A stretch of DNA of 64,000 nucleotides, from the NCBI GenBank assembly GCA_965222075.1, contig OZ244937.1, positions 2,080,001 to 2,144,000 of the forward strand. Direction: 5' to 3'. The notes below the pieces were generated by a model. It searched no databases. It was not told the DNA's origin and saw only the letters and a program-made list of their open reading frames with translations. Shown in pieces: positions 2,508-44,228 of this stretch. Origin of the DNA: Candidatus Latescibacterota bacterium (lineage in GTDB: Bacteria > Latescibacterota > UBA2968 > GCA-2709665). The translations under genes were made by a program, and so were the position numbers. Each line of letters opens with the position of its first letter. Position 1 is the first letter of the stretch.

Positions 2508-5456
2508 CTAACCCCCTGAAATGGACATCCAGCGGTCCGTGCGCTCAATCTTGTGTTGACCAATGGAAACGGCGTTCGTTGTCCTCACCTGCCATCCCTC
2601 TCCATGCGACCGCAACCACACCCGGCTGGGCAACCTCACCTCCGCCTTTCCCTCCAGGGTCTGGAAAGGCGTGAACAGCTCCTTCAGAACGCCCGATTGC
2701 CGGTCATACGCAAAACCCGGATGGCGGGTACAGTGCAGCAGGGTCCGGCCGCCCGCCGTCTCCACCGCCTCAACCGGAAACGCCCGGTGATGGCTCCCCT
2801 CCTGAGACAGAATAACCGGCTCAGGATCTGTAAACACAAGCGGCTTATTTTCCGGGATATCCGCCCACGTACCATCCAAAACCACGGCAAGCCGGCCCTC
2901 GCCCCGGCTCGTCACCCCTTCCACCGCCAGCGGAGGGCGCGCAGAGACCTGGACCTCCAGCGCGCCATTTTGGAAATACGTACAATCGTAAAGGGACACC
3001 TGCGTGCCTTCCCCGCCGGCAATCACCGTTGCGTACCGCCCCTGCATCCGGGCCACTCCGTCCACCGTGTGCCGCCGGGAAGGATCGGACGCATAGAACA
3101 CCTGCGCTGTCCGTTCGCCGGTCTGTGTAACCGCCCGCACATCCAGCGCCACCACCCCGGCATCGTCCCGCGTTACATGTCGAACCCCAACGACCCTGTC
3201 GGTTCCATACATCGGCTCCCACAGCGCCACAAACCGGCTGCGCAGATCCTCACCCTCGCGGCGCATCACCACCCTGGGCATCCGGAACTTCTCCACCAGC
3301 GAGTGGTCCTCATCGCCCAGAGACTTCTGCCAGCAGCGCCGGATACTCGGCACCGTGCAGGTATAAAGATCCCCCTCCACGGGCTCCAGCATATGCAGAC
3401 GCACACCGGCCATCTCCCGGTCGATGGCTCGAAACTCCGCGCCAAACGGCCCCTCCACCCGACCTTTATGCACGTCTCGAAATACCCCATACCAGGGGTT
3501 CACATCGCGCGGTTTGAGCCCCCGTGCGTGCAGTTCCTTCTCCCATTCGCTGTGGGCCGGCGGCGTAAACGGCTTCCCATCGTCTGCGTAACTCTCGGCG
3601 AAAAACTGCGTCGGAACCGAAACGCTCAGGGTCTGATCCGTAGAACAGCTTCCCTGCGCCATCCACTCGTGAACCTCTCCCCCTTCTACCTGAAAAATAT
3701 CCACCACCACGTTGTCCGCCTCGCCAAGCGGAATCAGAAACAGCGCCCGCTGGTAGGTCCTGCACTGGGGATACGCCATTGCCCCGGAGGCCTCCACTAC
3801 CTGCACCCCGTTCTCAGCCGGGTGCCAGCCTATCAGATCTCCCGCCACGGAAACGCGTTTCTGCGTTTCCCGGTCCACCACCACCAGATTGTGCCCGGAG
3901 GCAACCGTAGCGAACATTCGGTACGTCCACGTATACCCGATATCTGCAATCAGTTCGTCCGTGTACGCCCAGAGCGCAAAATTCAGCATATCGTGGTGGT
4001 CGTGACCCCAGTTGCCCGAATAGTGGAGGTGCGCCTGAATCGGATGGCCCTTCTCCAGCACTCCCCGCCCCAGAACCGCGTGCCCGAACGCAGGGTATAT
4101 CAGCGGCCGCCCGTCCTGGGGGTCCGGGTGCCCGCCTCCCGTGAGCTTGCTGTACGTATCGTGCACCATCATATAGGTACCGTCGGGATAGCCCATCGTA
4201 TCCAGCGTCTCTATTGCACGGTAAAGCTGAGGGAGTTCTGTCCGATTGTCCAGCCCGTCGAACCGCCTGCCGTCGATGCTCGAGGCAAAACCGGGGGGAT
4301 CGGAGTATCCCTCTCCGTACTCTGCCGCCCGCTTTATGCCGTAGATGTGCTGACGGGCATAAGACATACTCTCCGGAAACACGTAATCCGCCATCAGCGT
4401 CTTCAGCACCATCTCCCGGAGCTTCCAGTAGGAATAATGGATCAACTCGGGCATACCCGCGCCCCGTCCGATCAAAATCAGTCCCTGCGCCTGGTAAGGA
4501 ATATAATTGCTCAACGCCTCGTCGGGATGGGAATAGTAAACATCGTACAGAATCGCATCCTGTACCGAATAGAGGAACAGATCCGCCTCGACCACACACC
4601 GGGCATCCCCACCCGCTGCCAGCCGGTCCAGCGCCTCCCACACCGGCGCGTTCACCACAAAATCGTAGCCCTGGGCCAGGTCGCCCACATGCCGGATGCC
4701 CGTGTGGTACTTATCGTACCAGATACCGGCGTACACCGGATATTCCCTAACCGGCCGCAGCCGATCACCTTCCGCAATCCCCGGGCGGCCCCGATGCGTC
4801 TTCGGCCAGTGTGGAACCGCACACCCAAAATCATACAGAATCGCCGCCGCACGCGCCGCATACTGCTCATCTCCCGTTATCCGATACAGCATCCCCAGCG
4901 TCTTCGCCGCCTCGATCAGATAATACACCCGCAGCGAATCCATATACTCTCCATACAGGTAGATCCGCTTCCCGTCGGGCGCGTCGTGATAAGGATATTC
5001 CTGTGTATCCCCCCTGGGGCCGGTAATCTCAATCGTCCCGGTCCGCGGATAAAGCGCAAACGGATCCACCGTGTGTCCTCTGGGGCACCAGATCCGGTCC
5101 GGATCGTCCGGGCGCCACACCAGCCTGGCCTCGTCTCCGGTGGGACACATCGCGATTCGTGTGGTCGGCATCACCCGGCTGTTTCCGGCAATACGATTTC
5201 GCAGCGGCGCCATGCCGATGAGCTCCTCCGGAGCCACCTTCAAATACGGCTCGGCCTTCTTCTTGAGGTCTCCAATTTCCTCACCCGTCAGCGCCTCGGT
5301 CAGATCTGTTAGTTGTGGGTTGCCGCGCATATCCGGCATCTGCACACGCGGGACCGGTCTCAGCGTGTCTACCCACTGCTCGGTCGGATAGAACCCGCCG
5401 TAGTATTCCCGCAACGCTGCGTCCGTCTCAGCCTCAAACTTGCCAAACTTGGACAT
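2508..5456 (-). CDS. Heparinase II/III-like polysaccharide lyase-fold protein, no signal peptide (paralog A)
   Basis: Start moved to MSKFGKF (ATG 5456, GGGGGA SD). Motifs FPESMSY, GHDHHDMLNF, GHNLVVVD typical of Hepar_II_III-type proteins. Confidence 0.75.
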   Translation of the reverse strand: MSKFGKFEAETDAALREYYGGFYPTEQWVDTLRPVPRVQMPDMRGNPQLTDLTEALTGEEIGDLKKKAEPYLKVAPEELIGMAPLRNRIAGNSRVMPTTRIAMCPTGDEARLVWRPDDPDRIWCPRGHTVDPFALYPRTGTIEITGPRGDTQEYPYHDAPDGKRIYLYGEYMDSLRVYYLIEAAKTLGMLYRITGDEQYAARAAAILYDFGCAVPHWPKTHRGRPGIAEGDRLRPVREYPVYAGIWYDKYHTGIRHVGDLAQGYDFVVNAPVWEALDRLAAGGDARCVVEADLFLYSVQDAILYDVYYSHPDEALSNYIPYQAQGLILIGRGAGMPELIHYSYWKLREMVLKTLMADYVFPESMSYARQHIYGIKRAAEYGEGYSDPPGFASSIDGRRFDGLDNRTELPQLYRAIETLDTMGYPDGTYMMVHDTYSKLTGGGHPDPQDGRPLIYPAFGHAVLGRGVLEKGHPIQAHLHYSGNWGHDHHDMLNFALWAYTDELIADIGYTWTYRMFATVASGHNLVVVDRETQKRVSVAGDLIGWHPAENGVQVVEASGAMAYPQCRTYQRALFLIPLGEADNVVVDIFQVEGGEVHEWMAQGSCSTDQTLSVSVPTQFFAESYADDGKPFTPPAHSEWEKELHARGLKPRDVNPWYGVFRDVHKGRVEGPFGAEFRAIDREMAGVRLHMLEPVEGDLYTCTVPSIRRCWQKSLGDEDHSLVEKFRMPRVVMRREGEDLRSRFVALWEPMYGTDRVVGVRHVTRDDAGVVALDVRAVTQTGERTAQVFYASDPSRRHTVDGVARMQGRYATVIAGGEGTQVSLYDCTYFQNGALEVQVSARPPLAVEGVTSRGEGRLAVVLDGTWADIPENKPLVFTDPEPVILSQEGSHHRAFPVEAVETAGGRTLLHCTRHPGFAYDRQSGVLKELFTPFQTLEGKAEVRLPSRVWLRSHGEGWQVRTTNAVSIGQHKIERTDRWMSISGG

Positions 5457-5500
5457 AAGGTTTATCCCCCCGTAAGCGCAAGGGTTGTACTTTGCTCGTA

Positions 5501-5530
5501 AGCATAATCCCCCGGACCGGGGGTTGTCAA
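5501..5530 (-). promoter_or_regulatory. Putative sigma70 promoter for lyase A/DUF6785 operon, with dyad in spacer
   Basis: Minus strand TTGACA-18nt-TATGCT. Spacer contains palindrome CCCCCGG-A-CCGGGGG (5509-5523). Repeated at 29939-29968. Confidence 0.55.
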
Positions 5531-5651
5531 GCGCAATCGGCTCCCTCTGCTTCGGCAGGGACCTGCACATTCGCTGGATTTTTCAAAAGAGGAAGAGTAT
5601 ATTGGTTTTCGGATATGGATCTGGTAATGTACGGTTCTGGAGGTACTGACC

Positions 5652-8600
5652 ATGCAACCATCCGACACAACCCGGCTTCGAGCCTCCGCGCCTGCGCTCG
5701 CCCGGCTGTCCTTTTGGGTGCCCCCGGAACGGATGGCCGAATTTGAGATGGCCTACGTGGAGAAAGTGGCTCCCATTCTGGAACGCCTCGGCCTGGTGGC
5801 ATCCTCTTGTCAGGCCCGAACGGCCCTGGAGGGGATCTTCAGCCGGCTGTTCGAGATACAAACACCATCTCATATAGCAGAAATAGAGACAGCGCTTCAG
5901 AGAGACGGAAATTGGCAGGAAACGGTGCAGAGTCTCTCAACGGCCTTTACAGCAGACGGCATACCGGACGTGTTTCGGCACCGCCTCGGAATTTACAGTG
6001 CCCCTGCAGGACCTGGCAGGGTGGTGCCTGCTGGATGCGGTCGGGGGCACTGGCGAACCTACGATGGAGTGGACGGATTGCCGGAAAACCATGTGCGGGC
6101 AGTCCTCCAGGATCGGGACGGAAACCTCTGGTTCGGCACCGAAGTCGGGGCCTGCCGATATGACGGTCGAACCTGGGCTACGTTCGCTATGCAGGACGGT
6201 CTGGGAGACAATTATGTGCAGGCGATTTTCCAGGATCGAGACGGACAGCTCTGGTTCGGCACCAGAGGCGGCGTGAGTTGTTATGACGGACAGACATTTA
6301 CCTCCTTCACGGTTCAGGATGGCCTGGCCGACAACAGTGTGTTTTCAATCCTTCAGGACCGGGAGGGAACCCTCTGGTTCGGCACCGGCAGTTTTCGCGC
6401 CGATGGCCGTGGTGTAAGTCGGTATAACGAACAGGGCTTTACTACTTTTTCCGCACAAGATGGTCTGACGGACGACACGGTGCTTTCGATTTTTCAGGAT
6501 CGGGAGGGGCGCCTCTGGTTTGGTACGAACGGCGGTGTAAATCGATATGACGGTCGAAGCTTTGCCGCTTTTTCCGCACAAGATGGTCTGGCGGGTGACA
6601 CGGTGCTTTCGATTTTTCAGGATCGGGAGGAGCGCCTCTGGTTTGGTACGAACGGCGGTGTAAGTCGATATGACGGACGATGTTTTATCACCTTCACAAC
6701 GGACGATGGGCTGGCGGAGAATGTGGTGCGGTCAATCTACCAGGACCAGGAGGGAATCCTCTGGTTCTGTACCCAAGGCGGTGTGAGCCGCTACGATGGA
6801 CAGAAATTCACGACCTTTACTTCTCAGAACGGCCTGGCCGACAATGTGGTGCGGTCGGTCTGCCAGGATCGGGAGGGGCACCTCTGGTTCGGCACGATGG
6901 GCGGCGGTGTCAGCCGATATGACGGGCAGCGGTTTATCACCTTTACAACAGACGATGGCCTGGCGGGCAATTGGGTGCGATCGATCCTTCAGGACCGGGA
7001 GGGGCGCCTCTGGTTCGGCATCTGCGGGGGCGGTGTGTGCCGTTATGATGGAGAGACCTTTTCTACCTTTTCCACACAAGACGGACTGTTAGACGTGGAC
7101 GTGCGGTTGATTTTTCAGGATCGGGAGGGGCACGTCTGGGTCGGCACTGAATACGGTTTGAGCCGGTATGATGGAGAGGCCTGGACCAGTTTCACGCCTG
7201 AAGATGGACTGCCCGAAAACCCGGTTTTTTCGATCTTTCAAGACCGGGAGGGGAGTCTCTGGATCGGCACGATATCCGGTGTGAGCCGGTATGATGGACG
7301 GCGTTTTACGAGCTTTACAACGGATGATGGATTGATCGATAACCATGTAAGGTCGATCTTCCAGGGCCGGGAGGGGGACCTCTTAATCGGTACAATATCC
7401 GGTGTGAGCCGGTATGATGGACGGCATTTTACGAGTTTTACAGCGGGTGATGGACTGATCGATAACAATGTAAGGTCGATCTTCCAGGACCGGGAGGGAG
7501 ACCTCTGGTTCGGGACCATGGGCGGCGGTGTGAGCCGGTATGACGGACAGGCCTGGACCACCTTTACCACGGGTGACGGGCTGGCGCACAACGTGGTGAC
7601 ATCGATCTTTCAGGACCGTGAAGGGCATCTCTGGTTTGGCACGGATGGCGGTGTGAGCCGGTACGATGGACAGGTCTTCCAGACGCTGACCGACCGGGAT
7701 GGTCTGCCGAGCAATTCGATGTGGTCGATCTTCCAGGATCGGGATGGATATATCTGGATCGGCACCGTCAACGGTGTGACGCGCTATCATCCCCCCGCGC
7801 CGTCGCCTCCTTCAGCGTTCATCGACGGGGTGGTGGCCGATCAACGCTATGAAGGGACAACCGCGCTTGAGATTCCCTCCAGCGTGCGGCTGACCGCCTT
7901 TGAGTTTCACGGGATCAGCTTTAAGACCCGTCCGGAGGCAGTGGTCTATCAATATCGGCTGGAGGGGTATGAAGCAGGCTGGAAGACGACAGATAGCGGC
8001 CGGGCGGAATACCAGGACCTGCCGCCGGGCGATTATACCTTTCATGTGAGGGCCATAGATCGAGATCTGAACTACTCCGATCCTGCGACTGTACGGTTAG
8101 CCGTTGTGCTGGACCCACGAATTCAGGCATTGACCGAGGCCCTGAGCGAGAGTGGGGCATCGAGTGAGTTTGTGGGGAAGAGCGATGCGCTGCACCGGGT
8201 GCAGACGCAGCTTTCGGAGATCGCCCAGACGGATGTGACGGTGTTGATTTTGGGAGAGACCGGAACGGGCAAGGGGCTGGCCGCCCGGGCGGTACACGCA
8301 CTGAGCAATCGAAAAATGGGGCCGTTTATACAGGTGAACTGCGGGGCGATTCCGGAAGGGTTGGTGGAAAGCGAACTGTTCGGACACGAAAAGGGGGCGT
8401 TTACGGGTGCGGATACCCGCAAGCTGGGGAAGGTAGAGCTGGCGAAGGGGGGAACGCTATTGTTAGATGAGATCGGGGATCTGGCCCGGGACACCCAGGT
8501 GAAGCTGTTGCAGCTTTTAGAGGAGCGGACCTTCTATCGGGTGGGAGGCACGCAGTCCCTGCAGGTCGAGGTGCGCGTAATCACAGCAACCAACCGGGAT

Positions 8601-9101
8601 CTGGCGCAAATGGTGGCAGAAGAGAGGTTCAGAGAGGACCTGTACTTCCGACTCCATGCGTTTCCGGTGCGGATGCCGCCTTTGCGAGAGCGCAGAGAGG
8701 ATATTTTGCTGCTTGCCGCCTACTTTATGGAAAGAATGGCGATGCGTATGAACAAGAAGATTACGCATTTGACGCTCGAGGCGCAGGCTATTCTGATGGC
8801 CTACAGTTGGCCGGGAAACGTGCGGGAGCTGGAGCACGCAGTACAGCGTGGAGTGATCCTGTGCAAGGGACCGACAATCGGTGTGGAGGAGATCGCGCTG
8901 GAGATTCAGAAGGATCCTGGGGGTCCGGCAGAGGAAGTTGTGACATTAGCGGAGCACGAACGACAGTATATACGGGAGGTTTTGGAGAAGACCGCCTGGA
9001 GGATCAGGGGGCCTCACGGTGCAGCGGTGCTTTTAGGACTGCCCGAGTCCACGCTGCGCAGCCGGATGAAGAAACTGGGCATTGTGCGACCACAACAGTA
9101 G
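5652..9101 (+). CDS. Sigma54-dependent activator fused to two-component-regulator propeller repeats and Y_Y_Y domain (copy 1)
   Basis: ~14 repeats DGL..N.V.SIFQDREG.LWFGT.GGVSRYDG; [19 protein letters not shown] (Y_Y_Y); Walker [30 protein letters not shown]; C-terminal Fis-type HTH. Confidence 0.92.
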   Translation: MQPSDTTRLRASAPALARLSFWVPPERMAEFEMAYVEKVAPILERLGLVASSCQARTALEGIFSRLFEIQTPSHIAEIETALQRDGNWQETVQSLSTAFTADGIPDVFRHRLGIYSAPAGPGRVVPAGCGRGHWRTYDGVDGLPENHVRAVLQDRDGNLWFGTEVGACRYDGRTWATFAMQDGLGDNYVQAIFQDRDGQLWFGTRGGVSCYDGQTFTSFTVQDGLADNSVFSILQDREGTLWFGTGSFRADGRGVSRYNEQGFTTFSAQDGLTDDTVLSIFQDREGRLWFGTNGGVNRYDGRSFAAFSAQDGLAGDTVLSIFQDREERLWFGTNGGVSRYDGRCFITFTTDDGLAENVVRSIYQDQEGILWFCTQGGVSRYDGQKFTTFTSQNGLADNVVRSVCQDREGHLWFGTMGGGVSRYDGQRFITFTTDDGLAGNWVRSILQDREGRLWFGICGGGVCRYDGETFSTFSTQDGLLDVDVRLIFQDREGHVWVGTEYGLSRYDGEAWTSFTPEDGLPENPVFSIFQDREGSLWIGTISGVSRYDGRRFTSFTTDDGLIDNHVRSIFQGREGDLLIGTISGVSRYDGRHFTSFTAGDGLIDNNVRSIFQDREGDLWFGTMGGGVSRYDGQAWTTFTTGDGLAHNVVTSIFQDREGHLWFGTDGGVSRYDGQVFQTLTDRDGLPSNSMWSIFQDRDGYIWIGTVNGVTRYHPPAPSPPSAFIDGVVADQRYEGTTALEIPSSVRLTAFEFHGISFKTRPEAVVYQYRLEGYEAGWKTTDSGRAEYQDLPPGDYTFHVRAIDRDLNYSDPATVRLAVVLDPRIQALTEALSESGASSEFVGKSDALHRVQTQLSEIAQTDVTVLILGETGTGKGLAARAVHALSNRKMGPFIQVNCGAIPEGLVESELFGHEKGAFTGADTRKLGKVELAKGGTLLLDEIGDLARDTQVKLLQLLEERTFYRVGGTQSLQVEVRVITATNRDLAQMVAEERFREDLYFRLHAFPVRMPPLRERREDILLLAAYFMERMAMRMNKKITHLTLEAQAILMAYSWPGNVRELEHAVQRGVILCKGPTIGVEEIALEIQKDPGGPAEEVVTLAEHERQYIREVLEKTAWRIRGPHGAAVLLGLPESTLRSRMKKLGIVRPQQ

Positions 9102-9211
9102 CGCTATATATCACGCAATGCGCTATATATCACGCAGCATTCTTTTTTTATAATTAACTGTAAATAAATAAAATATAAAATTTATGGAGAAATTGTTAAG
9201 CGATATATCGC
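9101..9211. promoter_or_regulatory. Putative upstream activating sequences (copy 1)
   Basis: Direct repeat GCGCTATATATCACGCA at 9101-9117 and 9120-9136; perfect palindrome GCGATATATCGC at 9200-9211; ~125-235 bp upstream of a -24/-12 promoter in AT-rich DNA. Confidence 0.6.
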
Positions 9212-9290
9212 GCATTCGCAATACTGTTCAAAGACTCTAAACATAGATATAACCTGAAATAATAAATAAAATTAGATATAAGACCGTTAT

Positions 9291-9332
9291 AAACAGCCAC
9301 CTGAAGCTATATGCGTCAGATGGCTGTTTTTT
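9291..9332 (+). terminator. Hairpin plus T-run directly upstream of sigma54 promoter
   Basis: AAACAGCCACCTGA / TCAGATGGCTGTTT (1 mismatch), 11-nt loop, ending in a T6 run. Also at ~33729-33769. Confidence 0.5.
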
Positions 9333-9334: not shown

Positions 9335-9350
9335 TGGCACAGATTTTGCT
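9335..9350 (+). promoter_or_regulatory. Sigma54 -24/-12 promoter (copy 1)
   Basis: TGGCAC-AGATT-TTGCT, exact GG-N10-GC consensus, downstream of a bEBP gene. Confidence 0.88.
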
Positions 9351-9381
9351 ATATTCCAAGGCGTTGTCCGGGGAGGCTCCG

Positions 9382-9651
9382 ATGTTGCGCATCACAGTGG
9401 TATCACAGACGCCAGATGAGGTGGTGTTGAGGATGGAGGGCTGGGTGTCCGGAACGAATGTGGAGCTGCTGAAACAGGAAGTCACGCATTGGTTTCGGGA
9501 GGCCAAGTATGTGGTGCTGGACCTGACCAACATTCGGTTCATCGACGAAGCAGGCATCACGTTATTGCAGGGCTGGTCGAAGAAGCGTTTGATGCTGCGC
9601 GGCGGATCGCTGTTTGTTCACACACTGTTGGAGGCCCACGGGTTGGCTTAG
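9382..9651 (+). CDS. STAS-domain (anti-sigma-antagonist-like) small protein
   Basis: MLRITV start with GGAGG SD; VVLDLTNIRFIDEAGITLL resembles the STAS motif (LDLS.V.FIDS.G). Confidence 0.8.
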   Translation: MLRITVVSQTPDEVVLRMEGWVSGTNVELLKQEVTHWFREAKYVVLDLTNIRFIDEAGITLLQGWSKKRLMLRGGSLFVHTLLEAHGLA

Positions 9652-9815
9652 GGAAATAAAGACGAGGAATATAACCTGTCAGACGGGTGTATTATTGCGT
9701 ATAGATAAGGGGGAATGCTTAAAAGATGAATGATTTCGGGTGGCTGTCGGATGTCTTTGCGTGAACGTCATGCGCTTGAAGCTAAGTCGCTGGAGTTAAA
9801 GGAGGAGACCTGAAC

Positions 9816-12800: not shown

Positions 12801-13020
12801 CAACTCGAAGGGGCGCGTGCGCCCGTCGTTCTTCGTCGAGGTCCGCAATCTCTTCGACCAGAAGACGGACATTACCAATCCTGGGGCCAAGTACATGCAG
12901 CGGGGCCAGCTGATGCCCGACCCGGACAATAAGGACTTTTTGACCTACGGGGACATGGGAGACCGCGATTTTGCCCACGCACCCAGACAGACCAACCTGG
13001 GCATCCGCGTCTCCTTCTGA
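9816..13020 (+). pseudogene. TonB-dependent receptor copy 1, frameshifted at C5 run 12491-12495 (real or sequencing error)
   Basis: Signal peptide, carboxypeptidase-regulatory-like domain, plug. ORFs 9816-12539 and 12310-13020 together match the intact 34270-37476. Removing one C restores F-P-D-K-G-M-Y-M. Ends RVSF. Confidence 0.85.
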
Positions 13021-15530: not shown

Positions 15531-15551
15531 TGCGAAGAAAGGGGTAAGACC

Positions 15552-16615: not shown

Positions 16616-16660
16616 TGCACCCCCGTCTTTTTGACTTTGGATGGGGGTGCACCTATTTTT
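16616..16660 (+). terminator. Intrinsic terminator-like hairpin overlapping putative sigma70 promoter
   Basis: TGCACCCCCGTC / GATGGGGGTGCA then CCTATTTTT; contains TTGACT-17nt-TATTTT (16631-16659). Confidence 0.55.
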
Positions 16661-29894: not shown

Positions 29895-30089
29895 AAGGTT
29901 TATCCCCCCGTAAGCGCAAGGGTTGTACTTTGCTCGTAAGCATAATCCCCCGGACCGGGGGTTGTCAAGCGCAATCGGCTCCCTCTGCTTCGGCAGGGAC
30001 CTGCACATTCGCTGGATTTTTCAAAAGAGGAAGAGTATATTGGTTTTCGGATATGGATCTGGTAATGTACGGTTCTGGAGGTACTGACC

Positions 30090-33000: not shown

Positions 33001-33539
33001 AGGCCGAGGTACGCGTAATCACAGCGACCAACCGGAATCTGGCGCAAATGGTGGCGGAAGAGAGGTTCAGAGAGGACCTGTACTTCCGACTCCAGGCGTT
33101 TCCGGTGCGGATGCCGCCTTTGCGAGAACGCAGAGAGGATATTTTGCTGCTTGCCGCCTACTTTATGGAAAGAATGGCGATGCGTATGAACAAGAAGATT
33201 ACGCATTTGACGCTCGAGGCGCAGGCTATTCTGATGGCCTACAGTTGGCCGGGAAACGTGCGGGAGCTGGAGCACGCAGTACAGCGTGGAGTGATCCTGT
33301 GCAAGGGACCGACAATCGGTGTGGAGGAGATCGCGCTGGAGATTCAGAAGGATCCTGGGGGTCCGGCAGAGGAAGTTGTGACATTAGCGGAGCACGAACG
33401 ACAGTATATACGGGAGGTTTTGGAGAAGACCGCCTGGAGGATCAGGGGGCCTCACGGTGCAGCGGTGCTTTTAGGACTGCCCGAGTCCACGCTGCGCAGC
33501 CGGATGAAGAAACTGGGCATTGTGCGACCACAACAGTAG
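30090..33539 (+). CDS. Propeller/Y_Y_Y-fused sigma54-dependent activator (copy 2)
   Basis: Same 1149-aa length as copy 1; [21 protein letters not shown]; N-terminus and HTH identical, propeller blades diverged. Confidence 0.92.
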
Positions 33540-33649
33540 CGCTATATATCACGCAATGCGCTATATATCACGCAGCATTCTTTTTTTATAATTAACTGTA
33601 AATAAATAAAATATAAAATTTATGGAGAAATTGTTAAGCGATATATCGC
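33539..33649. promoter_or_regulatory. Putative UAS (copy 2)
   Basis: Same direct repeat (33539-33574) and GCGATATATCGC palindrome (33638-33649) as copy 1. Confidence 0.6.
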
Positions 33650-33771: not shown

Positions 33772-33787
33772 TGGCACAGCTTTTGCT
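33772..33787 (+). promoter_or_regulatory. Sigma54 -24/-12 promoter (copy 2)
   Basis: TGGCAC-AGCTT-TTGCT. Confidence 0.88.
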
Positions 33788-33804: not shown

Positions 33805-34113
33805 ATGTTGCGCATCACAGTGGTATCACAGACGCCAGATGAGGTGGTGTTGAGGATGGAGGGCTGGGTGTCCGGAACGAATGTGGAGCTGCTGAAACAG
33901 GAAGTCACGCATTGGTTTCGGGAGGCCAAGTATGTGGTGCTGGACCTGACCAACATTCGGTTCATCGACGAAGCAGGCATCACGTTATTGCAGGGCTGGT
34001 CGAAGAAGCGTTTGCGCGGCGGATCGCTGTTTGTTCACACACTGTTGGAGGCGCGGCGGATCGCTGTTTGTTCACACACTGTTGGAGGCCCACGGGTTGG
34101 CTTAGGGAAATAA
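33805..34113 (+). CDS. STAS-domain protein copy 2, altered C-terminus
   Basis: As 9382-9651 but with a 6-nt deletion and a 37-bp tandem duplication (34014-34050 / 34051-34087) that shifts the last codons. Confidence 0.7.
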   Translation: MLRITVVSQTPDEVVLRMEGWVSGTNVELLKQEVTHWFREAKYVVLDLTNIRFIDEAGITLLQGWSKKRLRGGSLFVHTLLEARRIAVCSHTVGGPRVGLGK

Positions 34114-37200: not shown

Positions 37201-37476
37201 CTGATTACTCGGGGCCCGGTCGAGACGGTGACGGACCTGGGCGTGGAGAAGGTCTTCAACTCGAAGGGTCGCGTGCGCCCGTCGTTCTTCGTCGAGGTCC
37301 GCAATCTCTTCGACCAGAAGACGGACATTACCAATCCCGGGGCGAAGTACATGCAGTGGGGCCAGCTGATGCCCGACCCGGACAATAAGGACTTTGTGAC
37401 CTACGGGGACATGGGAGACCGCGATTATGCCCACGCGCCCAGACAGACGAACCTGGGTATCCGCATCGTCTTTTGA
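34270..37476 (+). CDS. TonB-dependent receptor copy 2 (intact)
   Basis: AAAGGAGG SD, signal peptide, GKISGRITD...GFY carboxypeptidase-regulatory-like domain, plug (PAEYGDAQGGTINIV), YVQDKMEF, ISPRLGISHP, terminal RIVF. Confidence 0.92.
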   Translation: MRSTKTLYMLTGILTLVLALPLSGAFAGSTGKISGRITDAQGAPLPGSSVVIEGTQRGAITDADGFYVIVAVDPGSYDLTASLVGFANVTKRNVNVTVDYTTTLSFTLKEQAIEAAEIVVTAERSPVEADKTSTRYVLSVEDIEQAPIVKTTGEFISLQPGVDQAGTFSIRGSKITRGTDPQIAGGHNSYAGNDVYVMIDGVRISNNDGNSALLFTGVNKSAIQQISVETGVTPAEYGDAQGGTINIVMKDGGKAFHGWTEVNLEPAGKKHWGANAYDAPLHRDHMKWDDPEWLKETDPQTGRIIHVREDYTSYQGVRLEGSLSGPVGPKASFIVSAKHDRRATTYPSATSHGFYNDRGQYINAPNNFQGSASLTVKPTGGIKVKTGLILQRYTAFNNEYNHARQADEGFIRGLLRRNGRNIFLPSDWASSGKYRHQENLAYVTFTHTISSKTFYEVRLARSQTVNDTMDTHPWSENPRNDRAGWFYIDREVASWVDTDRKRYSIKADLSSQLTRGNFVKTGFEIIRYNTYYTFWSSGSKTANRFTMSAGGDTPWIMDTPAKPIRGAFYVQDKMEFEGLILNVGVRMDFNKHTHRELMFSGMQTAPMWRFYTDRHYAYGVGTGEGVNVTGDMARTPTTQFYISPRLGISHPVTDRMTMHFSLGRFIQWLSIYDSYAKSYRNAGKVGPDGDPSWKDVNGNGVKDPAEALNVMQHPKKGTAGDPWAHPEQTLTFEVGGDWNFVSDYTASLAIWYRSETDQIVREANRWEGPKSSTTLRGQGNGRGGYVKGLDIAVRKRLSSYFSFRLAWTSSWSAYGDMGLTQYRARMHPDSAFVVSPEFWYKFKPMPDGSQVAVALTEAEKKEFGRQAENTVRGSQRNFEDVARTHYGKIPEFADKAVYMKYMSLGGFNRGPLAPLGEERVGGRLGQANAQFVLHTPPDIRFGPRWMSWLASDLNANLLWRLRTGIRFKWTPPGRGDALITRGPVETVTDLGVEKVFNSKGRVRPSFFVEVRNLFDQKTDITNPGAKYMQWGQLMPDPDNKDFVTYGDMGDRDYAHAPRQTNLGIRIVF

Positions 37477-37558: not shown

Positions 37559-39961
37559 ATGCACTTGCGTATGTTGAGACTTTCGCTTGTTCCGCTTGGA
37601 GCGGTGCTGTTTCTGCTCTTTGCAGCATCCGGCCCTCGGGCGCAGTTGGCAGGAGGGGAGGGGGACGCCGAGGCGATACGGCTCAACCGTCCGCTCCTGT
37701 CGCCCCTGATAACCGCGGTGGGCACCCACGACCACTTTTTCCTTGCTGGCTACGGCACCAGCGCCGGGCTGGGTTACCCCCGCCATAATGCGGGGGGCGG
37801 CGCCTACGGCGACAACCGGTTGGGCAGCATAGGGGTATCCGGCAACAGGGATGCCTCCTTTACGGCCGTGCGCAACGGCCACGGGGTCTGGACACTGACG
37901 TCGGACACCCGCGTGGTCTACACCGGCATCCGGATCGGCATGCAGGAGCTGAACATTCGGGCAATGCAGTACGACGTGAGCGCCGATCCGGACCTGTCAA
38001 AGCTGGGCAAGGAGTTCCACCTCCACCGCCGGCCTACGGTGAAGATGGGCAACGGACGGGGGAATCCCGCCGGGGTATCGGAGACAAGCCTGGGCGGGAA
38101 CTGGTGGCCGGGGTCCGATCTGATCGAGGTGGGACGGACACTGGCGCGCAATGACCTGCCGCCGGTCAACATCCTGAACCTGAACCTCTCCGCCTATCCG
38201 GATGACGACACCTGGGCCGAGCAGATCATCATCACAAAGTGGACGACTTCTCAGGGGCTGACCATCACGGAGCGGGTGTCCGGATGGAGCCACCCCGACT
38301 TCGACGAGTTCTTCATCGACGAGTACGTGATCGAAAACACGGGCGATACGGATGGGGACGGGGAGCGGGACCTGCCGGCGGTCGCCCAGAACGACCTCTT
38401 CATCGGGTTTGAGGACCGGTTCAAGACCAACGCGGCCGGATCCGCGCCGTACCGCACGGCAGGGGGAGGCTACGCCTCCTGGCGGCGGGAAGAGCAAGTC
38501 ACCCTGGACGACTGGTACGCCTACGACGAGAAGCTCAAACTGCTGTATAACTGGGATGGCGACCATCCCCTCTATATCGACTGGGATGATACGGGCGATC
38601 CCTACAGAGACGCCTTTGCGGAAGGGACGGAGGTCGCCGGCGCCAAGATCGGCCAGCCCGAGGGCCACTTGATGTCCCCCGGGCATCACGGAGTGGCCGT
38701 GATCGCTTACACGGACGATTCTACGAGTCCCTACGCGTACAATGCGCGGGACATAGGCCAGGGCTACGTCGTGCCCGAAGGCGATCAGCCCTACGCCGTG
38801 CGAATGTGGGAGTCCTTCGGTCCTCAGGTGCAGAGCGACCCGAACACCACCACGATGACGGAATTAGACATGTACTCCGAGGTGCTTTCGGGCCGCCAGA
38901 TCGATCCGAACCCGGACCATGTAAGCGGCCAGATCTCCATGCTGGTCTTCGGGCCGTACGACCTGCCCGCCGACGGAAAGACGAAGATCGTGCTGGCCTA
39001 TGTGTCCGGACAGCCCGGCCAGATGCTGGGGAACATCGGCCCGATCGAGTGGGCGGTCAAAGGGAATCAGAACGAACTGCCCAAGGGCCACGACGCGCAG
39101 AAGCAGAATTTGGAGGCCGCACAGTTTGCTTACGATAACGCCTTCGACCTCCCGGACGCGCCGCCCGATGTGAATTTCCGGACGGGCAGCAGCGCCACGG
39201 CGACCATGACGGTGGACTGGCCGGACGTGATCGAGAATGCGGCACACCCGGACTACGGGTCTGCGGATATTGCGGGCTACCGGGTCTATCGCACCTCCTG
39301 GTTCGACATCGGCCCCTACGAGTTGGTTGCGGATATCCCCGCGGGGACGACAAGCTTAGAGACGCCCGCATACAGGGTGACGCGCGAGGGCGGGCTGTAC
39401 AAGGTCACGGACCTGCGCTCGGCGGCCGGATTCTTTTATCACTACAGCGTGCGCGCCTACGCAAAGCCCCACGCGGACTGGACCCCGGGGAGCAGCGATC
39501 CGGCGGTGCACCCGCTTTCGATGGCAGACCTGCCGGGCCACATCACCAGCCACGTGCAGGTGGGCCAGGAGGGGGGCTGGTCCGCGTCTACGCAGCGGAT
39601 TTATGCGGTCGAATCGCCCTTCTCGGTGCCGGCGCCGGAGACGGAGTCCCTCAGCGAAAAGATCCGGGTGGTGCCCAACCCCTACTTTGCGGTCGAACAG
39701 GGGCGATTCTACCCCGGCTCCACGAAACTCCGATTTGTGGGTATCCCATCACACTGCAGAATCCGCATCTTCTCGGCATCCGGAGACATGGTCTCCGATT
39801 ATACCCACAACAATCCGACCAAGGGGGAGTCCGACTACATCCAGGAGACGTGGAACCTGAGCGGGTCGATCGCTTCGGGGGTCTACTTCTGGGTGGTGGA
39901 GAATCTGATCGACGGTCATAAGGGGAAGATTCAGAAGGGCCACCTCGTGGTTATCCGATAA
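37559..39961 (+). CDS. Secreted protein with T9SS-type CTD (copy 2)
   Basis: Start MHLRMLRL after AAGGAGG; paralog of 13122-15530 with a different signal peptide. Confidence 0.75.
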   Translation: MHLRMLRLSLVPLGAVLFLLFAASGPRAQLAGGEGDAEAIRLNRPLLSPLITAVGTHDHFFLAGYGTSAGLGYPRHNAGGGAYGDNRLGSIGVSGNRDASFTAVRNGHGVWTLTSDTRVVYTGIRIGMQELNIRAMQYDVSADPDLSKLGKEFHLHRRPTVKMGNGRGNPAGVSETSLGGNWWPGSDLIEVGRTLARNDLPPVNILNLNLSAYPDDDTWAEQIIITKWTTSQGLTITERVSGWSHPDFDEFFIDEYVIENTGDTDGDGERDLPAVAQNDLFIGFEDRFKTNAAGSAPYRTAGGGYASWRREEQVTLDDWYAYDEKLKLLYNWDGDHPLYIDWDDTGDPYRDAFAEGTEVAGAKIGQPEGHLMSPGHHGVAVIAYTDDSTSPYAYNARDIGQGYVVPEGDQPYAVRMWESFGPQVQSDPNTTTMTELDMYSEVLSGRQIDPNPDHVSGQISMLVFGPYDLPADGKTKIVLAYVSGQPGQMLGNIGPIEWAVKGNQNELPKGHDAQKQNLEAAQFAYDNAFDLPDAPPDVNFRTGSSATATMTVDWPDVIENAAHPDYGSADIAGYRVYRTSWFDIGPYELVADIPAGTTSLETPAYRVTREGGLYKVTDLRSAAGFFYHYSVRAYAKPHADWTPGSSDPAVHPLSMADLPGHITSHVQVGQEGGWSASTQRIYAVESPFSVPAPETESLSEKIRVVPNPYFAVEQGRFYPGSTKLRFVGIPSHCRIRIFSASGDMVSDYTHNNPTKGESDYIQETWNLSGSIASGVYFWVVENLIDGHKGKIQKGHLVVIR

Positions 39962-39982: not shown

Positions 39983-40969
39983 GTGAAACAGCTTAGATTC
40001 ACGATACTGCTCGCCGCGATGGGGGTGCTCCTGTTTGCGCCTCCCGGCGACGCGGTTATCAAGGATGAAGTCGAGCGGCTCTTTGGCACACAAAAGTGGC
40101 TCGGCCTGGCCGGGTTTCAGTTCCTCAAGATCGGGCAGGGTGCCCGGCCCGTGGCCATGGGCGATGCCTATACGGCCGTGGCGGACGATATCAACGCGAT
40201 CTTCTGGAATCCGGCGGGGCTGACGGCCATCCGGGGCACGGCCTGGACGGCCTCCTACACGAAGTGGCTGGTGGACTCCCACCTCTACTCCGCGGCGGTG
40301 GCCTGGAACACGGGCACGGCCAGGGGCGGGGTGCTGGGCGGCAGCGTGGTGGCCTTGAGGTTCCCGCATATCGAGGAAACAACGACCTTCCAGCCGCAAG
40401 GTACGGGTGCCGGTGTGTCCACCGGGGATGTGGCCATCGGCGTGGTCTACGCGCTGAAGCTGACGGACAAATTTTCGTTCGCCTCCCGGGTGTCGTGGGT
40501 CAGCCAGACCCTCCATACCGAAAGCGTCAGCACCATCAGTGTGGACGTGGGCACGCTCTTCTATACGGGCTTTAAGAGCCTGCGTCTGGCCATGGCGCTG
40601 AAGAACTACGGCCCGGACAAGAAGATTGTGGAGAACAAATTCTTCATGCCCCTTTATTACCACGTAGCTGCGGCAGGGGAGATCTACGGGGAGAAGGGAG
40701 ACCCCGCTTATCTAACCGTGTCGGGGGAATCCGCGTTTGCGGCGGACTACGAGTTGCGCGCCCACCTGGGAGCCGAGATGTGGTTTCAGAACATGGTTGC
40801 CCTGCGGGCAGGCTATAAGTTCAACTACGACACGGATACCTACAGTGCAGGGGCAGGCCTGAAGTACGAAATCGCCGGTGACCGGGCAGTGACGGTGGAC
40901 CTCTCCTACACGGATATGGGCAAGTACTTCGACGGCCCCATACGGGTGACGGTTGGGGGGATGTTTTAG
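39983..40969 (+). CDS. PorV/PorQ family barrel (copy 2)
   Basis: 328 aa; four substitutions versus copy 1 found by eye. Confidence 0.88.
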   Translation: MKQLRFTILLAAMGVLLFAPPGDAVIKDEVERLFGTQKWLGLAGFQFLKIGQGARPVAMGDAYTAVADDINAIFWNPAGLTAIRGTAWTASYTKWLVDSHLYSAAVAWNTGTARGGVLGGSVVALRFPHIEETTTFQPQGTGAGVSTGDVAIGVVYALKLTDKFSFASRVSWVSQTLHTESVSTISVDVGTLFYTGFKSLRLAMALKNYGPDKKIVENKFFMPLYYHVAAAGEIYGEKGDPAYLTVSGESAFAADYELRAHLGAEMWFQNMVALRAGYKFNYDTDTYSAGAGLKYEIAGDRAVTVDLSYTDMGKYFDGPIRVTVGGMF

Positions 40970-41044: not shown

Positions 41045-41090
41045 TGCACCCCCGTCTTTTTGACTTTGGATGGGGGTGCACCTGTTTTGT
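41045..41090 (+). terminator. Terminator-like hairpin (copy 2)
   Basis: Same stem as 16616-16651, followed by CCTGTTTTGT. Confidence 0.55.
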
Positions 41091-41165
41091 TAAGGCGCCG
41101 GATAAGACCTGTCCATAACTTTGTTTCCAACATGCCCGACGACGTGCGCCACTTCAGGAGGTTCC

Positions 41166-44100
41166 ATGTCTAAGTTTGGCGAGTTTATCCCGAAATCCGC
41201 TCGGTCGAAAGCATCCGCCTCGACGGGCTCACCCGGTCCTCCTGCGCTGGACGCCACATCGGGCCTGAGTTCCGACCGGCTCTCGGAGAGACCCTTTTCA
41301 CAGGCAGCCCTGGAACAATACTACGGCGGATTTTTCCCCACGCCGGAATGGACCGACGCCCTCCAGCCCGTGCCACGCGACAGTCGCGCCAACCCCCAGT
41401 TGACGGACATACTGGTCAAGCCGCTTACCCGGGAACGAATCGAGAGCCTGAAACAGGACGCCGAACCCTACCTGCGTGTCTCGCCGAATGACCTGATCGG
41501 AATGGCCCCGGTGCGCAACCGCATCGCCGGCAACGCCCGCGTGATGCCCTCCACGCGAATCGCCCGGTGTCCCGACGGCGACGGCGAAACGCTCACCTGG
41601 CGGCCCGACGACCCGGACAAGATCTGGTGTCCGCAGGGCCACACGGTAGACCCGTTCGCACGCTACCCCCAGACCGGCAGCATCCGGATCACGGGTCCCA
41701 AAGGGGACGAGCAGGACTACCCCTATCACGATGCGCCGGATGGAAAACGCATTTACCTCAACGGCGAGTTTATGGACTCGCTGCGCGTGTACTATCTCAT
41801 CGAAGCCGCAAAGACCCTTGGCATATTGTATCATCTCACCTCGGAGGTTGCATACGCCCAACGCGCTGCGGCCATCCTCTACGACTTCGCCCGCGCAGTG
41901 CCCCACTGGCCCAAGACCCACCGGGGGCGTCCCGGAATCGCGGAAGGTGACCGCCTGCGGCCCGTCACCGAATACCCCGTTTATGCCGGAATCTGGTACG
42001 ACAAATACCACACCGGCACGAGACACTTCTGCACGCTTGCGGAAGGCTACGACTTCATTGTCAACACACCCGTCTGGGATGCGCTGGACAGCTCGGCGCC
42101 CGGCAAAGACGCACGGGCCTGGATCGAGAACGACCTCTTCCTCTACTCTGTGAAAGACGCGATCCAGTACGACATCCACTACCCCCACCCCGACGCCGCC
42201 CTGAGCAATTATATACCCTCCCAGGCCGCAGGCTTTACCCTCATCGGGCGGGGCGTGGGCATTCCCGAACTGGTCCACTACGCCTACTGGAAGCTCAGAC
42301 AACTGGCCGAAAAGACCATCATGGCCGACTACGTCTTCCCCGAGAGCATGTCCTACGGGGCCATGCACATCCACGGCATCGCCCGCGCCTCGGAAAAAGG
42401 ACAGGGATACGCCGATCCCCCCGGATTTATCTCCAGCATCGATGGCGGGCGGTTCGACAACCTGGACAACGCGCAGGAACTCCCCGTACTCCGTCGCGCA
42501 GTCGAAACCCTGGCAACCATGGTCTATCCGGACGGCAACTACATCCAGGCCCACGACACCCATCACAAAATGCGCCAGAGGAAAAACACGACGCCGGAAG
42601 AAACGCGGCCCTCCACCTCCGCCGCCGGAGAAACGCGACCTCTCATCTACCCCGCCTTCGGACACGCCTGCCTGGCCAGGGGGGAGGCTCCAAAAGGCAA
42701 CCAGATCCAGGCGCACCTGCACTACTCGGGCAACTGGGGGCACGATCACGACGACATGCTCAACTTCATCCTCTGGTCCTACAAAGAGGAAATGATCTCG
42801 GATATCGGATACCAGCTCACCTACAACGGCTTTTCCCATATCGCCGCCGGGCACAACCTGGTTGTCGTGGACCGGAACACGCAAGAAAGCGTAAATGCGC
42901 CGGGGCGCCTGATCGGGTGGCATCCGGCGGAGGATGGCGTTCAGGTCATCGAGGTCTCAGCGCCGGAGGTCTACCCTCAGTGCAGCGCGTACCGGCGAAC
43001 CCTTTTCCTCATCCCCATTGGCGAAATGGACAACCTGGTCCTGGACATCTTCGACGTGGAAGGCGGCAGCATCCACGAATGGATGGCCCAGGGAAGCTGC
43101 ATGGTCGAGCAGGCCCTGGACGTCCCGGTTCCCACCCGGTACCATGCGGACAGCTATGCGGACGACGAGGTGCCCTTCACCCCGCCTGCCCACCGCGAAT
43201 GGGAAAAGCAGCTGCACGCCCAGGGGCTCAAACCGCGCGATGTGAACCCCTGGTACGGCGTGTTTCGAAACGTCCACAAAGGACGTGTGGAAGGCCCGTT
43301 TACGGCCACCTTTCGCGCTGAGAACCCGGACATGCCCGATGTACGCCTGCACATGCTCCTGCCCACAGACGGCGACCTCTACACCTGCACCGTGCCCACC
43401 CTTCGACAGTGCTGGAGCAACGCCCTGCAAATAGAAGACCATTCCCTGGTGGAAAAATTCCGAATGCCCAAGCTCGTCATTCGACGCGAGGGAGAAAATC
43501 TGCGCAGCCGGTTTGTTGGATTGTGGGAACCCGCACGCGGCTCCATGGTCGTCAAAGAAGTGAAAAATCTCGCCCCCGGACACCCCGAACTCGTGGCCGT
43601 GGAAATCCGTACCATCGGCGGGCACACGGTTCAACTGTTCTATTCGTCCGACCCCTCAAAGTGCCACCAGATCAGCAATGGAATGGCGTTCCAGGGCCGC
43701 TATGCGTCGGTCATCTCCCAGCATGAAAAGAAACAAATAACACTGTATGACTGCGCATCCTTCCATAACGGCGACCTTGAACTGACCCTCTCGCCTCGCC
43801 CGGCCCTGCCGCTGGAGGAAGTGCGCGAACGGGAGGGGGACAACGCCGTGCTGGTCCTGAATGGCGTGTGGGCGGACATACCCGAAGACCGCCCGCTTCA
43901 ATTTGAAACGCCCGAGCTGGTCATCCTGTCTCAAAACGGCGGCCACCAGCGGGCCTTCCCCATCCAGGCAGTGGAGAGAGAGGGCAACAGGACACGGCTG
44001 CGGTGCAGCCACCATCCGGGATTTGACTACGACTCGGGCGTGCTCAGAGAAATCGCCACGCCGTTTCAGGTCGTGGAAGGTAAGGCGGAGGTGAGGCTTC

Positions 44101-44228
44101 TTAGCAGGGTGTGGGCCCGCTCAAACGTTGCTCGAAAGGGTGTCTGGGAGGTGTTGACGACGGATGCGGTTACGGTGGGAACGCACCGGGTGGAACGGTC
44201 CGAGAAGTCCCCCAAAACACAGAGGTGA
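41166..44228 (+). CDS. Heparinase II/III-like protein (paralog B2)
   Basis: Start MSKFGEF after AGGAGG; mosaic near-copy of 16804-19890. Confidence 0.75.
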   Translation: MSKFGEFIPKSARSKASASTGSPGPPALDATSGLSSDRLSERPFSQAALEQYYGGFFPTPEWTDALQPVPRDSRANPQLTDILVKPLTRERIESLKQDAEPYLRVSPNDLIGMAPVRNRIAGNARVMPSTRIARCPDGDGETLTWRPDDPDKIWCPQGHTVDPFARYPQTGSIRITGPKGDEQDYPYHDAPDGKRIYLNGEFMDSLRVYYLIEAAKTLGILYHLTSEVAYAQRAAAILYDFARAVPHWPKTHRGRPGIAEGDRLRPVTEYPVYAGIWYDKYHTGTRHFCTLAEGYDFIVNTPVWDALDSSAPGKDARAWIENDLFLYSVKDAIQYDIHYPHPDAALSNYIPSQAAGFTLIGRGVGIPELVHYAYWKLRQLAEKTIMADYVFPESMSYGAMHIHGIARASEKGQGYADPPGFISSIDGGRFDNLDNAQELPVLRRAVETLATMVYPDGNYIQAHDTHHKMRQRKNTTPEETRPSTSAAGETRPLIYPAFGHACLARGEAPKGNQIQAHLHYSGNWGHDHDDMLNFILWSYKEEMISDIGYQLTYNGFSHIAAGHNLVVVDRNTQESVNAPGRLIGWHPAEDGVQVIEVSAPEVYPQCSAYRRTLFLIPIGEMDNLVLDIFDVEGGSIHEWMAQGSCMVEQALDVPVPTRYHADSYADDEVPFTPPAHREWEKQLHAQGLKPRDVNPWYGVFRNVHKGRVEGPFTATFRAENPDMPDVRLHMLLPTDGDLYTCTVPTLRQCWSNALQIEDHSLVEKFRMPKLVIRREGENLRSRFVGLWEPARGSMVVKEVKNLAPGHPELVAVEIRTIGGHTVQLFYSSDPSKCHQISNGMAFQGRYASVISQHEKKQITLYDCASFHNGDLELTLSPRPALPLEEVREREGDNAVLVLNGVWADIPEDRPLQFETPELVILSQNGGHQRAFPIQAVEREGNRTRLRCSHHPGFDYDSGVLREIATPFQVVEGKAEVRLLSRVWARSNVARKGVWEVLTTDAVTVGTHRVERSEKSPKTQR

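Follow-up and report, generated by a model that had tools for sequence, protein, structure and literature searches.

In a 64,000-nucleotide (nt) stretch of a Candidatus Latescibacterota genome (assembly GCA_965222075.1, contig OZ244937.1, positions 2,080,001 to 2,144,000 of the forward strand), hereafter the window, a 15-kb module encoding a regulator, a STAS-domain protein, a TonB-dependent receptor, a secreted protein, a PorV-like barrel and a lyase-fold protein occurs twice. At a probability of roughly 0.78, we read the two modules as an old duplicate pair of a predicted sigma-54-controlled polysaccharide-uptake locus that predates the split between the genus of the window and that of a relative, G004, and that has been repeatedly homogenised in tracts by interlocus gene conversion. 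Silent sites, outgroup trees, alleles in other assemblies and contigs from other sequencing runs, four lines that are independent of one another, agree on this. The genome is a single contig of 5.36 Mb that contains both copies in direct orientation, 24.4 kb apart. The copies and their principal genes, in window coordinates, are as follows.

4494 to about 19850: repeat copy A, comprising the 5' end of a lyase paralog, regulator, STAS open reading frame (ORF), receptor, secreted protein, PorV-like gene and lyase lyA
28932 to about 44210: repeat copy B, 24.4 kb downstream, gene order as in A
5652-9101 (+): regA, 1149 residues, with a 14-blade Reg_prop propeller, Y_Y_Y domain, AAA+ domain (GAFTGA) and Fis-type helix-turn-helix (HTH), from Pfam
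30090-33539 (+): regB, 87.5% amino-acid identity to regA, with the N-terminal 123 residues and the HTH identical
9816-13020 (+): tbdrA, TonB-dependent receptor split by a frame break at 12491-12494 (ORFs 9816-12539 and 12310-13020)
34270-37476 (+): tbdrB, intact, 1068 residues, CarboxypepD_reg domain, plug and modelled 22-strand barrel
13122-15530 (+): ctdA, secreted protein of 802 residues, no Pfam family, weak C-terminal tail of the type IX secretion system (T9SS) kind
37559-39961 (+): ctdB, 800 residues
15552-16538 (+): PorV/PorQ-family barrel of copy A, 98.8% identical to the scored copy B
39983-40969 (+): PorV/PorQ-family barrel of copy B, NF033709 at 170.6 bits (cut-off 90)
16804-19890 (+): lyA, lyase-fold protein of copy A, with old patches at 17440-17760 and 18040-18640
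41166-44228 (+): lyB, lyase-fold protein, orthologous to genes of the relatives G001 and G004
2508-5570 (-): lyA0, full-length lyase paralog with a likely start at 5456 (MSKFG...)
28911-30008 (-): lyA0', truncated, the N-terminal 365 codons of lyA0 only

A mosaic of identical tracts and divergent patches

The two copies align in four blastn segments (A/B): 4494-9635/28932-34052 at 92.0%, 9597-13040/34051-37494 at 92.0%, 13191-16659/37625-41088 at 95.2%, and 16799-19742/41161-44098 at 90.6%, with the A-to-B offset changing from 24438 to 24362 along the repeat. About 20 receptor/secreted-protein/PorV-like triads are present in this genome; the nearest third paralogs of the module proteins reach just 57-63% protein identity genome-wide, and A and B are therefore closer to each other than either is to any other paralog. 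A global alignment of the copies has 15287 columns and 1375 differences (91.0% identity), and these differences are far from evenly spread. Twelve identical tracts of at least 200 nt (209-661 nt) add up to 5024 nt, or 33% of the alignment, and the lowest 100-column bins fall to 54% identity. The tracts, in copy A coordinates, are:

4795-5259, 5371-6031, 8691-9326, 9372-9591, 9597-10036, 10042-10250
11069-11542, 13851-14093, 14289-14911, 15492-15848, 15850-16282, 18934-19196

When the differences were permuted 2000 times, the longest tract had a mean length of 82 nt and a maximum of 155 nt, so that 200 nt was never reached; the differences counted per 100 columns had a dispersion index of 14.9. 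The 2225 four-fold degenerate sites show equal heterogeneity, with a longest identical run of 169 sites where permutations gave 44 on average and 111 at most, indicating that the mosaic is not due to protein constraint. The alignment, the permutations and the four-fold sites uphold what a preliminary description of this DNA had reported from the letters alone, a duplicated 15-kb module in which identical and divergent stretches alternate abruptly. Its particulars were also borne out: the identical regulator N- and C-termini and intergenic region, the identical receptor stretch at about 11070-11540 (here 11069-11542), the identical core of the secreted (CTD) protein, and a mostly identical PorV (98.8% at the amino-acid level). 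The divergent patches it placed in the propeller, the C-terminal part of the receptor, the N-terminus of the secreted protein and the middle of the lyase are present, and the differing plug peptides SKPTQGTHPSIARGWNKYSGG and SKITRGTDPQIAGGHNSYAGN are as it quoted them.

Silent sites date these stretches. The coding A/B alignment was cut into 155 bins of 30 codons, and synonymous divergence (pS), nonsynonymous divergence (pN) and their ratio omega were obtained for each. In 46 bins pS was below 0.03; 80 bins had a mean pS of 0.154 and an omega of 0.30; and the remaining 29, the oldest, had a mean pS of 0.518 (dS about 0.9) and an omega of 0.15. Silent divergence is 0.00-0.02 in the identical tracts and 0.3-0.7 in the patches, compared with 0.17 to a same-genus orthologue, and whole-gene dN/dS ranges from 0.20 to 0.46. 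Accelerated evolution of a young duplicate predicts high pN with low pS; the reverse was observed, which argues that the patches are old sequence and not the product of fast evolution.

A donor at a third locus was sought genome-wide for the non-propeller patches with 28 windows of 150 nt in which A-B identity is below 88%, and none was better than the partner copy; two of the 28 were marginal, both in the conserved plug. An intragenomic third paralog was rejected as the donor of these patches, the partner copy being the best match genome-wide.

Outgroups, other strains and the age of the pair

Relatives were drawn from the same genus (G001) and from another genus (G004), and the DNA search took in 30 relatives. 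The lyases carry the most information on age, because their orthologues persist in both relatives. Copy B is closer to G001 than copy A is (93.1% and 88.2% identity), and in the deep patches lyB is 92-99% identical to G001, whereas lyA is only 73-85% identical to lyB, G001 and G004 alike. At silent sites, lyA and lyB diverge by 0.29 in one patch and 0.53 in the other, by 0.11 over the 5' part and by 0.02 in the identical tract, on a scale where lyB differs from G001 by 0.17 and from G004 by 0.27; within the identical tract, the pS of 0.02 between the copies compares with 0.15-0.17 to G001. Segment trees of eight lyase sequences (IQ-TREE) disagree accordingly. The old patches give (lyA,(G004,(lyB,G001))) with all nodes at 100/99, the identical tract gives (G004,(G001,(lyA,lyB))) with the A+B pair at 98/99, and the 5' part is unresolved. 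Conflicting topologies between segments are a formal signature of recombination, and in the old-patch tree the A type predates the separation of the window's genus from that of G004. The left arm of copy A, formed by the 5' 1077 nt of lyA0 (93% identical to its G001 orthologue), also separates the two types: at 10 of 22 sites that differ between A and B, A has the G001 state and B the G004 state, a pattern that again indicates old types.

In G001 and G004 the gene order at this site is lyase-paralog, lyase, third lyase, and the block from regulator to PorV is absent. Remnants of it can be recognised in both. G004 (C1:5116000-5131000, between lyase and lyase paralog) retains approximately the first 20 codons of the regulator up to a stop, beyond which lies an unrelated ORF of about 1 kb. 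In G001 the upstream region is preserved to about 5 nt before the regulator start codon, a tighter deletion whose breakpoint is unlike that of G004. As the scars have different breakpoints, the uptake block appears to be ancestral at the site and to have been lost twice independently.

Alleles of all five gene families in other assemblies were scored at the columns diagnostic for A or B (regulator 144, receptor 126, secreted protein 70, lyase 130). Almost all states are either A or B, the switch points differ, and outside frameshifted tails an intact allele carries 0-7 private substitutions, from which it follows that nothing new is being generated in the patches. Among the regulators, P0124 has several type switches and P0002 is B-type with A-type ends; the receptor P0191 is A-type over approximately residues 658-800; and the lyases P0222 and P0213 each contain a short tract of the opposite type. 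The receptor P0192 keeps six substitutions at residues 29-105, where the two copies of the window are identical, so this stretch was homogenised in the lineage of the window only. All five gene families are present in both copies in one assembly, with a 5,239,126-bp contig, and a 5,462,556-bp assembly has B-type genes only; copy number seems to vary among strains, at least one of which appears to be single-module. Because close strains differ in their A/B switch points and, apparently, in the presence of the second module, we take conversion to be ongoing.

The preliminary description had named repeat collapse or mis-polishing as an alternative to a real mosaic, and two strain haplotypes placed in tandem would have a similar appearance. 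The genome is of metagenome type in a single contig, short-read contigs break inside the repeat, and the frame break in the copy A receptor is shared by none of four other runs and neither of two full-length A-type proteins, all of which would suit an artefact. Six runs from three studies contain 77-80% of the sampled words of a copy-A-specific stretch, and four runs were compared, all as short-read contigs. Contigs from three differently labelled organisms span the 9-kb spacer between the copies and its junctions: those of X3 (19674-28968, 4 differences) and X4 (19516-29000) bridge the spacer and both junctions, and those of X7 cover 19635-27454 and 27612-28956 with 0 differences. The B-type sequence between PorV and lyase occurs in four of four runs, an 18,234-bp contig joins A-type regulator, receptor and lyase, and the two-copy assembly mentioned above has the same A and B states. 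The bridging contigs and this second two-copy assembly leave an artefact hardly credible, except at the receptor frame break. There, at position 12494, the only contig in each of the four runs has two extra letters that restore the frame, and the full-length A-type receptors P0127 and P0189, from other assemblies, read EFPDDKG at the site; the break (12485-12500) is thus private to this assembly, and is either a recent mutation or a consensus error. Elsewhere in the receptor, at 10978-11068, the X2 and X3 contigs are strongly unlike the window and those of X4 and X7 agree with it, so that a further (third) haplotype may be present among strains. The sponge metagenome runs X8-X10 contained next to none of the sampled words and give no evidence on habitat. 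Summed contig depth was about double over the repeat relative to the spacer, a figure that is not a copy number and was not used as evidence.

The process that would account for these observations is homologous recombination, probably RecA-type conversion, that repeatedly copies stretches between the direct-oriented modules. It would have left conversion tracts of several ages, with approximately a third of the module identical, half moderately diverged, and a fifth retaining the original deep divergence. Deep patches may persist since recombination stalls on mismatched DNA, since their replacement is selected against, or both. The same process probably acts on the 123-nt blade repeats within each sensor gene, where overwriting by a neighbouring blade produces the most divergent A/B patches.

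Nature of the divergent patches and rival explanations

The 14 blades of 123 nt in each regulator were compared pairwise, and against a between-blade background of 47-76% identity the following blades stood out and are read as products of intragenic conversion:

6408-6653 (+): regA blades 4 and 5, 86% mutual identity
7275-7520 (+): regA blades 11 and 12, 89% mutual identity
30705-31214 (+): regB blades 3-6, B3-B5 at 90% and B4-B6 at 83%, a two-blade shift of 264 nt

Orthologous A-B blade identity is minimal exactly at blades 4-6 and 11-12 (64-78%). As the outlier pairs coincide with the lowest A-B identity, the most divergent propeller patches appear to be whole blades overwritten by a neighbour in A or B. 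Blade-to-blade conversion, which the preliminary description had not considered, explains the worst propeller patches.

In the receptor, the differences were mapped onto a model of tbdrB with a predicted local distance difference test score (pLDDT) of 86.7 and a predicted template modelling score (pTM) of 0.86, with 22 strands and long loops assigned from the secondary structure of the model; the inside and outside of the barrel were deduced from the way long loops alternate with tight turns and not read from coordinates. Residues that differ between A and B are distributed as follows:

Long (outer) loops: 66 of 451 residues, 14.6%
Plug: 19 of 141, 13.5%
Strands: 28 of 313, 8.9%
Short (periplasmic) turns: 3 of 48, 6.2%
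N-terminal (CarboxypepD_reg) domain: 1 of 88, 1.1%
Signal peptide: 0 of 27, all regions summing to 117 over 1068 residues

Loops L9, L10 and L3 are the most different, and L4 and L5 have zero differences because both sit inside an identical tract. The differing sites are the variable columns of the family, with a conservation of 0.19 compared with 0.46 elsewhere, and the enrichment in predicted loops and plug is mild, of the kind that lower constraint alone gives.

It is improbable that diversifying (positive) selection on recognition surfaces made the divergent patches. The placement of the differences would favour it: most of them lie in the sensor propeller, in a plug loop, in loops L3, L9 and L10 of the receptor and in the N-terminal half of the secreted protein, and the TonB-side N-terminus, PorV-like barrel, C-terminal tail and HTH, where contacts with shared machinery are expected, are identical. 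However, pN exceeds pS in only 3 of the 155 bins, all marginal and each on a handful of changes, and omega is 0.15 in the oldest bins, where silent sites are near saturation; comparison of dN/dS between the copies, a check that had been proposed earlier, gave no diversifying signal in the diverged bins (omega 0.30 and 0.15). Hardly any strain-private variation is found (0-7 substitutions), two outer loops lie within an identical tract, the differing receptor sites are ordinary family-variable columns, and the propeller patches are whole-blade replacements. Of the earlier proposal that old paralogs are homogenised while their recognition surfaces diversify, the old pair and the tract conversion stand, on the evidence of trees, silent sites and strain tracts, and the diversifying surfaces do not. 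The homogenised parts are the TonB-side N-terminus, the PorV-like barrel, the C-terminal half of the secreted protein, the HTH and the promoter region, and it is notable that these are the parts expected to contact shared machinery; the pattern is compatible with selection against homogenising ligand-facing parts, and equally with recombination stalling on mismatched DNA. A maintained two-type system, in which conversion shuffles sensor, receptor and surface-protein segments between co-regulated modules and swaps blades, strains carry chimeric combinations for sensing and uptake, and selection separates two specificities in the deep patches, is conceivable but rather unlikely.

The remaining explanations concern where the divergence came from. 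Copy A, with its module, lyA and the spacer genes, could be a xenolog from a more distant Latescibacterota lineage that was inserted beside a resident B and then partly overwritten by conversion, which would change the origin of the divergence and leave the mechanism of the mosaic as described. The A-type lyase patches do fall outside the clade of lyB, G001 and G004, neither relative has a lyA-type gene or the spacer block at the site, and a MITE-like element (miniature inverted-repeat transposable element) marks the junction with copy B. We nevertheless consider a xenolog unlikely, as G+C content is even over both copies and the spacer (0.54-0.63), the regulator deletion scars in both relatives document loss at the site and not gain, G004-like states occur on the B-side left arm and not in copy A, and no donor was found among the 30 relatives searched. 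It is very improbable that the duplication is recent and that homologous recombination later brought in its divergent patches piecemeal from other strains or species. Lineages do recombine with one another in the lyase family, where G004 is a mosaic with respect to G001 and lyB (63-77% at 18249, 64-66% at 19249), but both deep lyase patches are in copy A and lyB is orthologue-like throughout, the A-type patches are in none of the 30 relative genomes, the same two types occur unchanged in at least three other large assemblies, and the intermediate strata (pS about 0.15) over half the module fit many old conversions better than a young duplicate. Several points weigh against an old, conversion-homogenised pair as well. 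The age argument comes from the lyase and the left arm, because the regulator, receptor, secreted-protein and PorV-like genes have no close outgroup: their best non-self matches are 50-63% (regulator) and 54-63% (receptor), DNA identity in the 30 relatives is at most 73%, and none of these can polarise the patches. G001, G004 and one close strain have no second copy, which a recent gain would also fit. As short-read contigs do not phase identical stretches of 400-660 nt, the tract lengths given here are those of the assembly, and the other strains are visible as proteins only, which makes the tract comparison one at the protein level. Receptor differences are somewhat commoner in the predicted outer loops and plug than in strands, and some ligand-side selection would look alike. 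RecA and a mismatch barrier are what we infer of the mechanism.

Predicted function, surroundings and comparison with known systems

By its AAA+ domain with GAFTGA, its C-terminal HTH, a -24/-12 promoter downstream and the presence of rpoN in the genome, the regulator is a predicted sigma-54 enhancer-binding protein. Sigma54_activat (PF00158) was found with an E-value of 5.5e-67 and HTH_8 with 3.4e-6, GAFTGA is readable in the translation, and the genome has one Sigma54_DBD gene (rpoN, 206 bits). The Pfam scan found no HisKA, HATPase or Response_reg domain in the regulator, and the protein has no hydrophobic segment (maximum 19-residue hydropathy 1.07), suggesting that it is soluble. The regulatory DNA and the first gene past the promoter comprise the following features:

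9101-9136 (+): two direct copies of the 17-nt repeat GCGCTATATATCACGCA, a candidate activator binding site, copy A
33539-33574 (+): two 17-nt repeats GCGCTATATATCACGCA, copy B
9335-9349 (+): perfect match to a -24/-12 sigma-54 promoter, TGGCACAGATTTTGC, copy A
33772-33786 (+): perfect match to a sigma-54 promoter, TGGCACAGCTTTTGC, copy B
9382-9651 (+): STAS-domain ORF of copy A, 89 residues, first gene past the promoter (PF01740, E-value 5.8e-10)
33805-34113 (+): STAS ORF of copy B, 102 residues, its C-terminal frame shifted by a 31-nt tandem duplication

Exact copies of GCGCTATATATCACGCA occur in only four places in the 5.36-Mb genome, two per module, and perfect sigma-54 matches number just 2 in the window and 20 in the genome. 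A scan for sigma-54 promoters that allowed mismatches gave 48 hits where 61 were expected by chance, and the promoter argument is therefore limited to the two perfect matches. Since A and B share their HTH domains, 17-nt repeats and -24/-12 promoters, either regulator should activate both operons.

Domain content and gene order suggest how the module may work. In the cytoplasm, the propeller of RegA or RegB would sense an imported oligosaccharide, the activator would bind the 17-nt repeats some 200-230 nt upstream of the -24/-12 promoter, and would then drive the operon of STAS protein, receptor, secreted protein and PorV-like barrel. The lyase-fold protein, given that it has no signal peptide, would act inside the cell, and, as HTH, repeats and promoters are shared, both operons would respond to either of the two sensors as an alternative input.

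The receptor scores 70 bits against TIGR04056, the SusC/RagA model (cut-off 368), and Pfam and domain scans found no member of the SusD family among the neighbouring genes. The tail of the secreted protein gives 12 bits against TIGR04183 (cut-off 23; E-value 0.15) and an E-value of 4e-4 against the NF052323 tail, and no sequence-related solved structure was found for this protein. The Pfam PorV score of the barrel is 27 bits, exactly at the cut-off of 27. Proteins of the lyA/lyB type have about 1020 residues. Their Pfam Hepar_II_III_C score of 21-22 bits is under the cut-off of 24, and a sequence search of the PDB gave 9irq as the sole match (E-value 0.022). An AlphaFold2 model of the lyase was mediocre (pLDDT 64.7), and all 47 Foldseek matches listed, to rank 50, are toroid-plus-sandwich polysaccharide lyases or dermatan-sulfate epimerase; the best, 8bdd_A, has an E-value of 6.9e-14 with TM-scores of only 0.35/0.46, with polysaccharide lyase family 17 (PL17) as the best class for this low-quality model. 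The evidence points at most to a fold class, an (alpha/alpha) toroid plus beta-sandwich protein resembling PL17, PL12, PL15 or PL21.

Directly upstream of the lyase start the copies are unrelated (139 nt at 16660-16799, 72 nt at 41088-41160), and G001 differs too; lyA and lyB thus have different upstream regions though their coding sequences recombine. A terminator scan between the PorV-like gene and the lyase found none. Two features separate the copies:

19891-28931: unique 9-kb spacer with five genes, for a DUF3604/CehA-like protein, a ceramidase-like protein, a 286-residue protein of no named family, a DUF6785+DUF6784 protein and a homocysteine S-methyltransferase
28809-28930: MITE-like element of about 120 nt with terminal inverted repeats, adjoining the left end of copy B

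The MITE-like element (28809-28930) occurs once in the genome of the window and in at least 14 copies at 91-93% identity in G004, which belongs to a different genus. DUF6785+DUF6784 proteins are encoded three times, each near a lyase paralog, at 549-2504 (-), 25323-27341 (+) and 47329-49317 (+), and the third of these regions (47275-49337) is missing from the colinear region of G001.

The modules document operon-scale concerted evolution for an uncultured lineage of Latescibacterota. When duplicated uptake loci show abrupt "hypervariable" patches, adaptive diversification need not be the cause, as such patches can be old sequence still to be reached by conversion, and in repeat proteins they can also be blade-for-blade replacements. 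For annotators, the frameshifted copy A receptor should not be called a pseudogene without read support. The two modules form a near-isogenic natural pair with defined differences in sensor, plug and loops and with a single shared regulatory region, which would make them handy for mapping specificity outside the Bacteroidota.

Polysaccharide utilisation loci of the Bacteroidota are built on SusC/SusD pairs and are controlled by hybrid two-component sensors (HTCS). As in those loci, a Reg_prop/Y_Y_Y sensor here appears to control an adjacent TonB receptor, surface protein and polysaccharide-cleaving enzyme, and paralogous loci occur in one genome. Unlike them, the module has no SusD, its receptor falls well below the SusC cut-off (70 bits against 368), and the partner of the receptor is a secreted protein with its own PorV-like barrel. 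HTCS consist of a periplasmic sensor, membrane span, histidine kinase, receiver and AraC HTH, whereas the sensor here is predicted to be soluble and is fused to a sigma-54 AAA+ activator.

Concerted evolution of bacterial duplicates by interlocus gene conversion is familiar from tufA/tufB of Salmonella and babA/babB of Helicobacter. Like those pairs, the modules have identical tracts in diverged paralogs, homogenised silent sites, paralogs that are closer than orthologues within tracts, and strain-variable tract ends; unlike them, each comprises six to seven genes over 15 kb, a unique 9-kb spacer lies between the two, the tracts fall into at least three age classes, and blades are exchanged in a second, intragenic layer. 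Mosaic divergence of tandem paralogues under interlocus gene conversion has been modelled (bioRxiv 10.1101/2025.10.29.685298), and allelic dimorphism has been attributed to gene conversion between paralogous surface antigens of Plasmodium falciparum (PMC10919680). The systems described there reportedly share with the modules islands of deep divergence beside homogenised stretches, and two deeply diverged types with little within-type variation; both systems are eukaryotic and the Plasmodium antigens are under immune pressure, whereas the genes here serve nutrient uptake by prediction and have no sign of positive selection. Among the matches listed in a literature search, no publication joined gene conversion with polysaccharide utilisation loci. 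The process itself is already well known, and what is less usual here is its 15-kb multi-gene scale, the clear age strata, the population evidence and the blade-to-blade layer.

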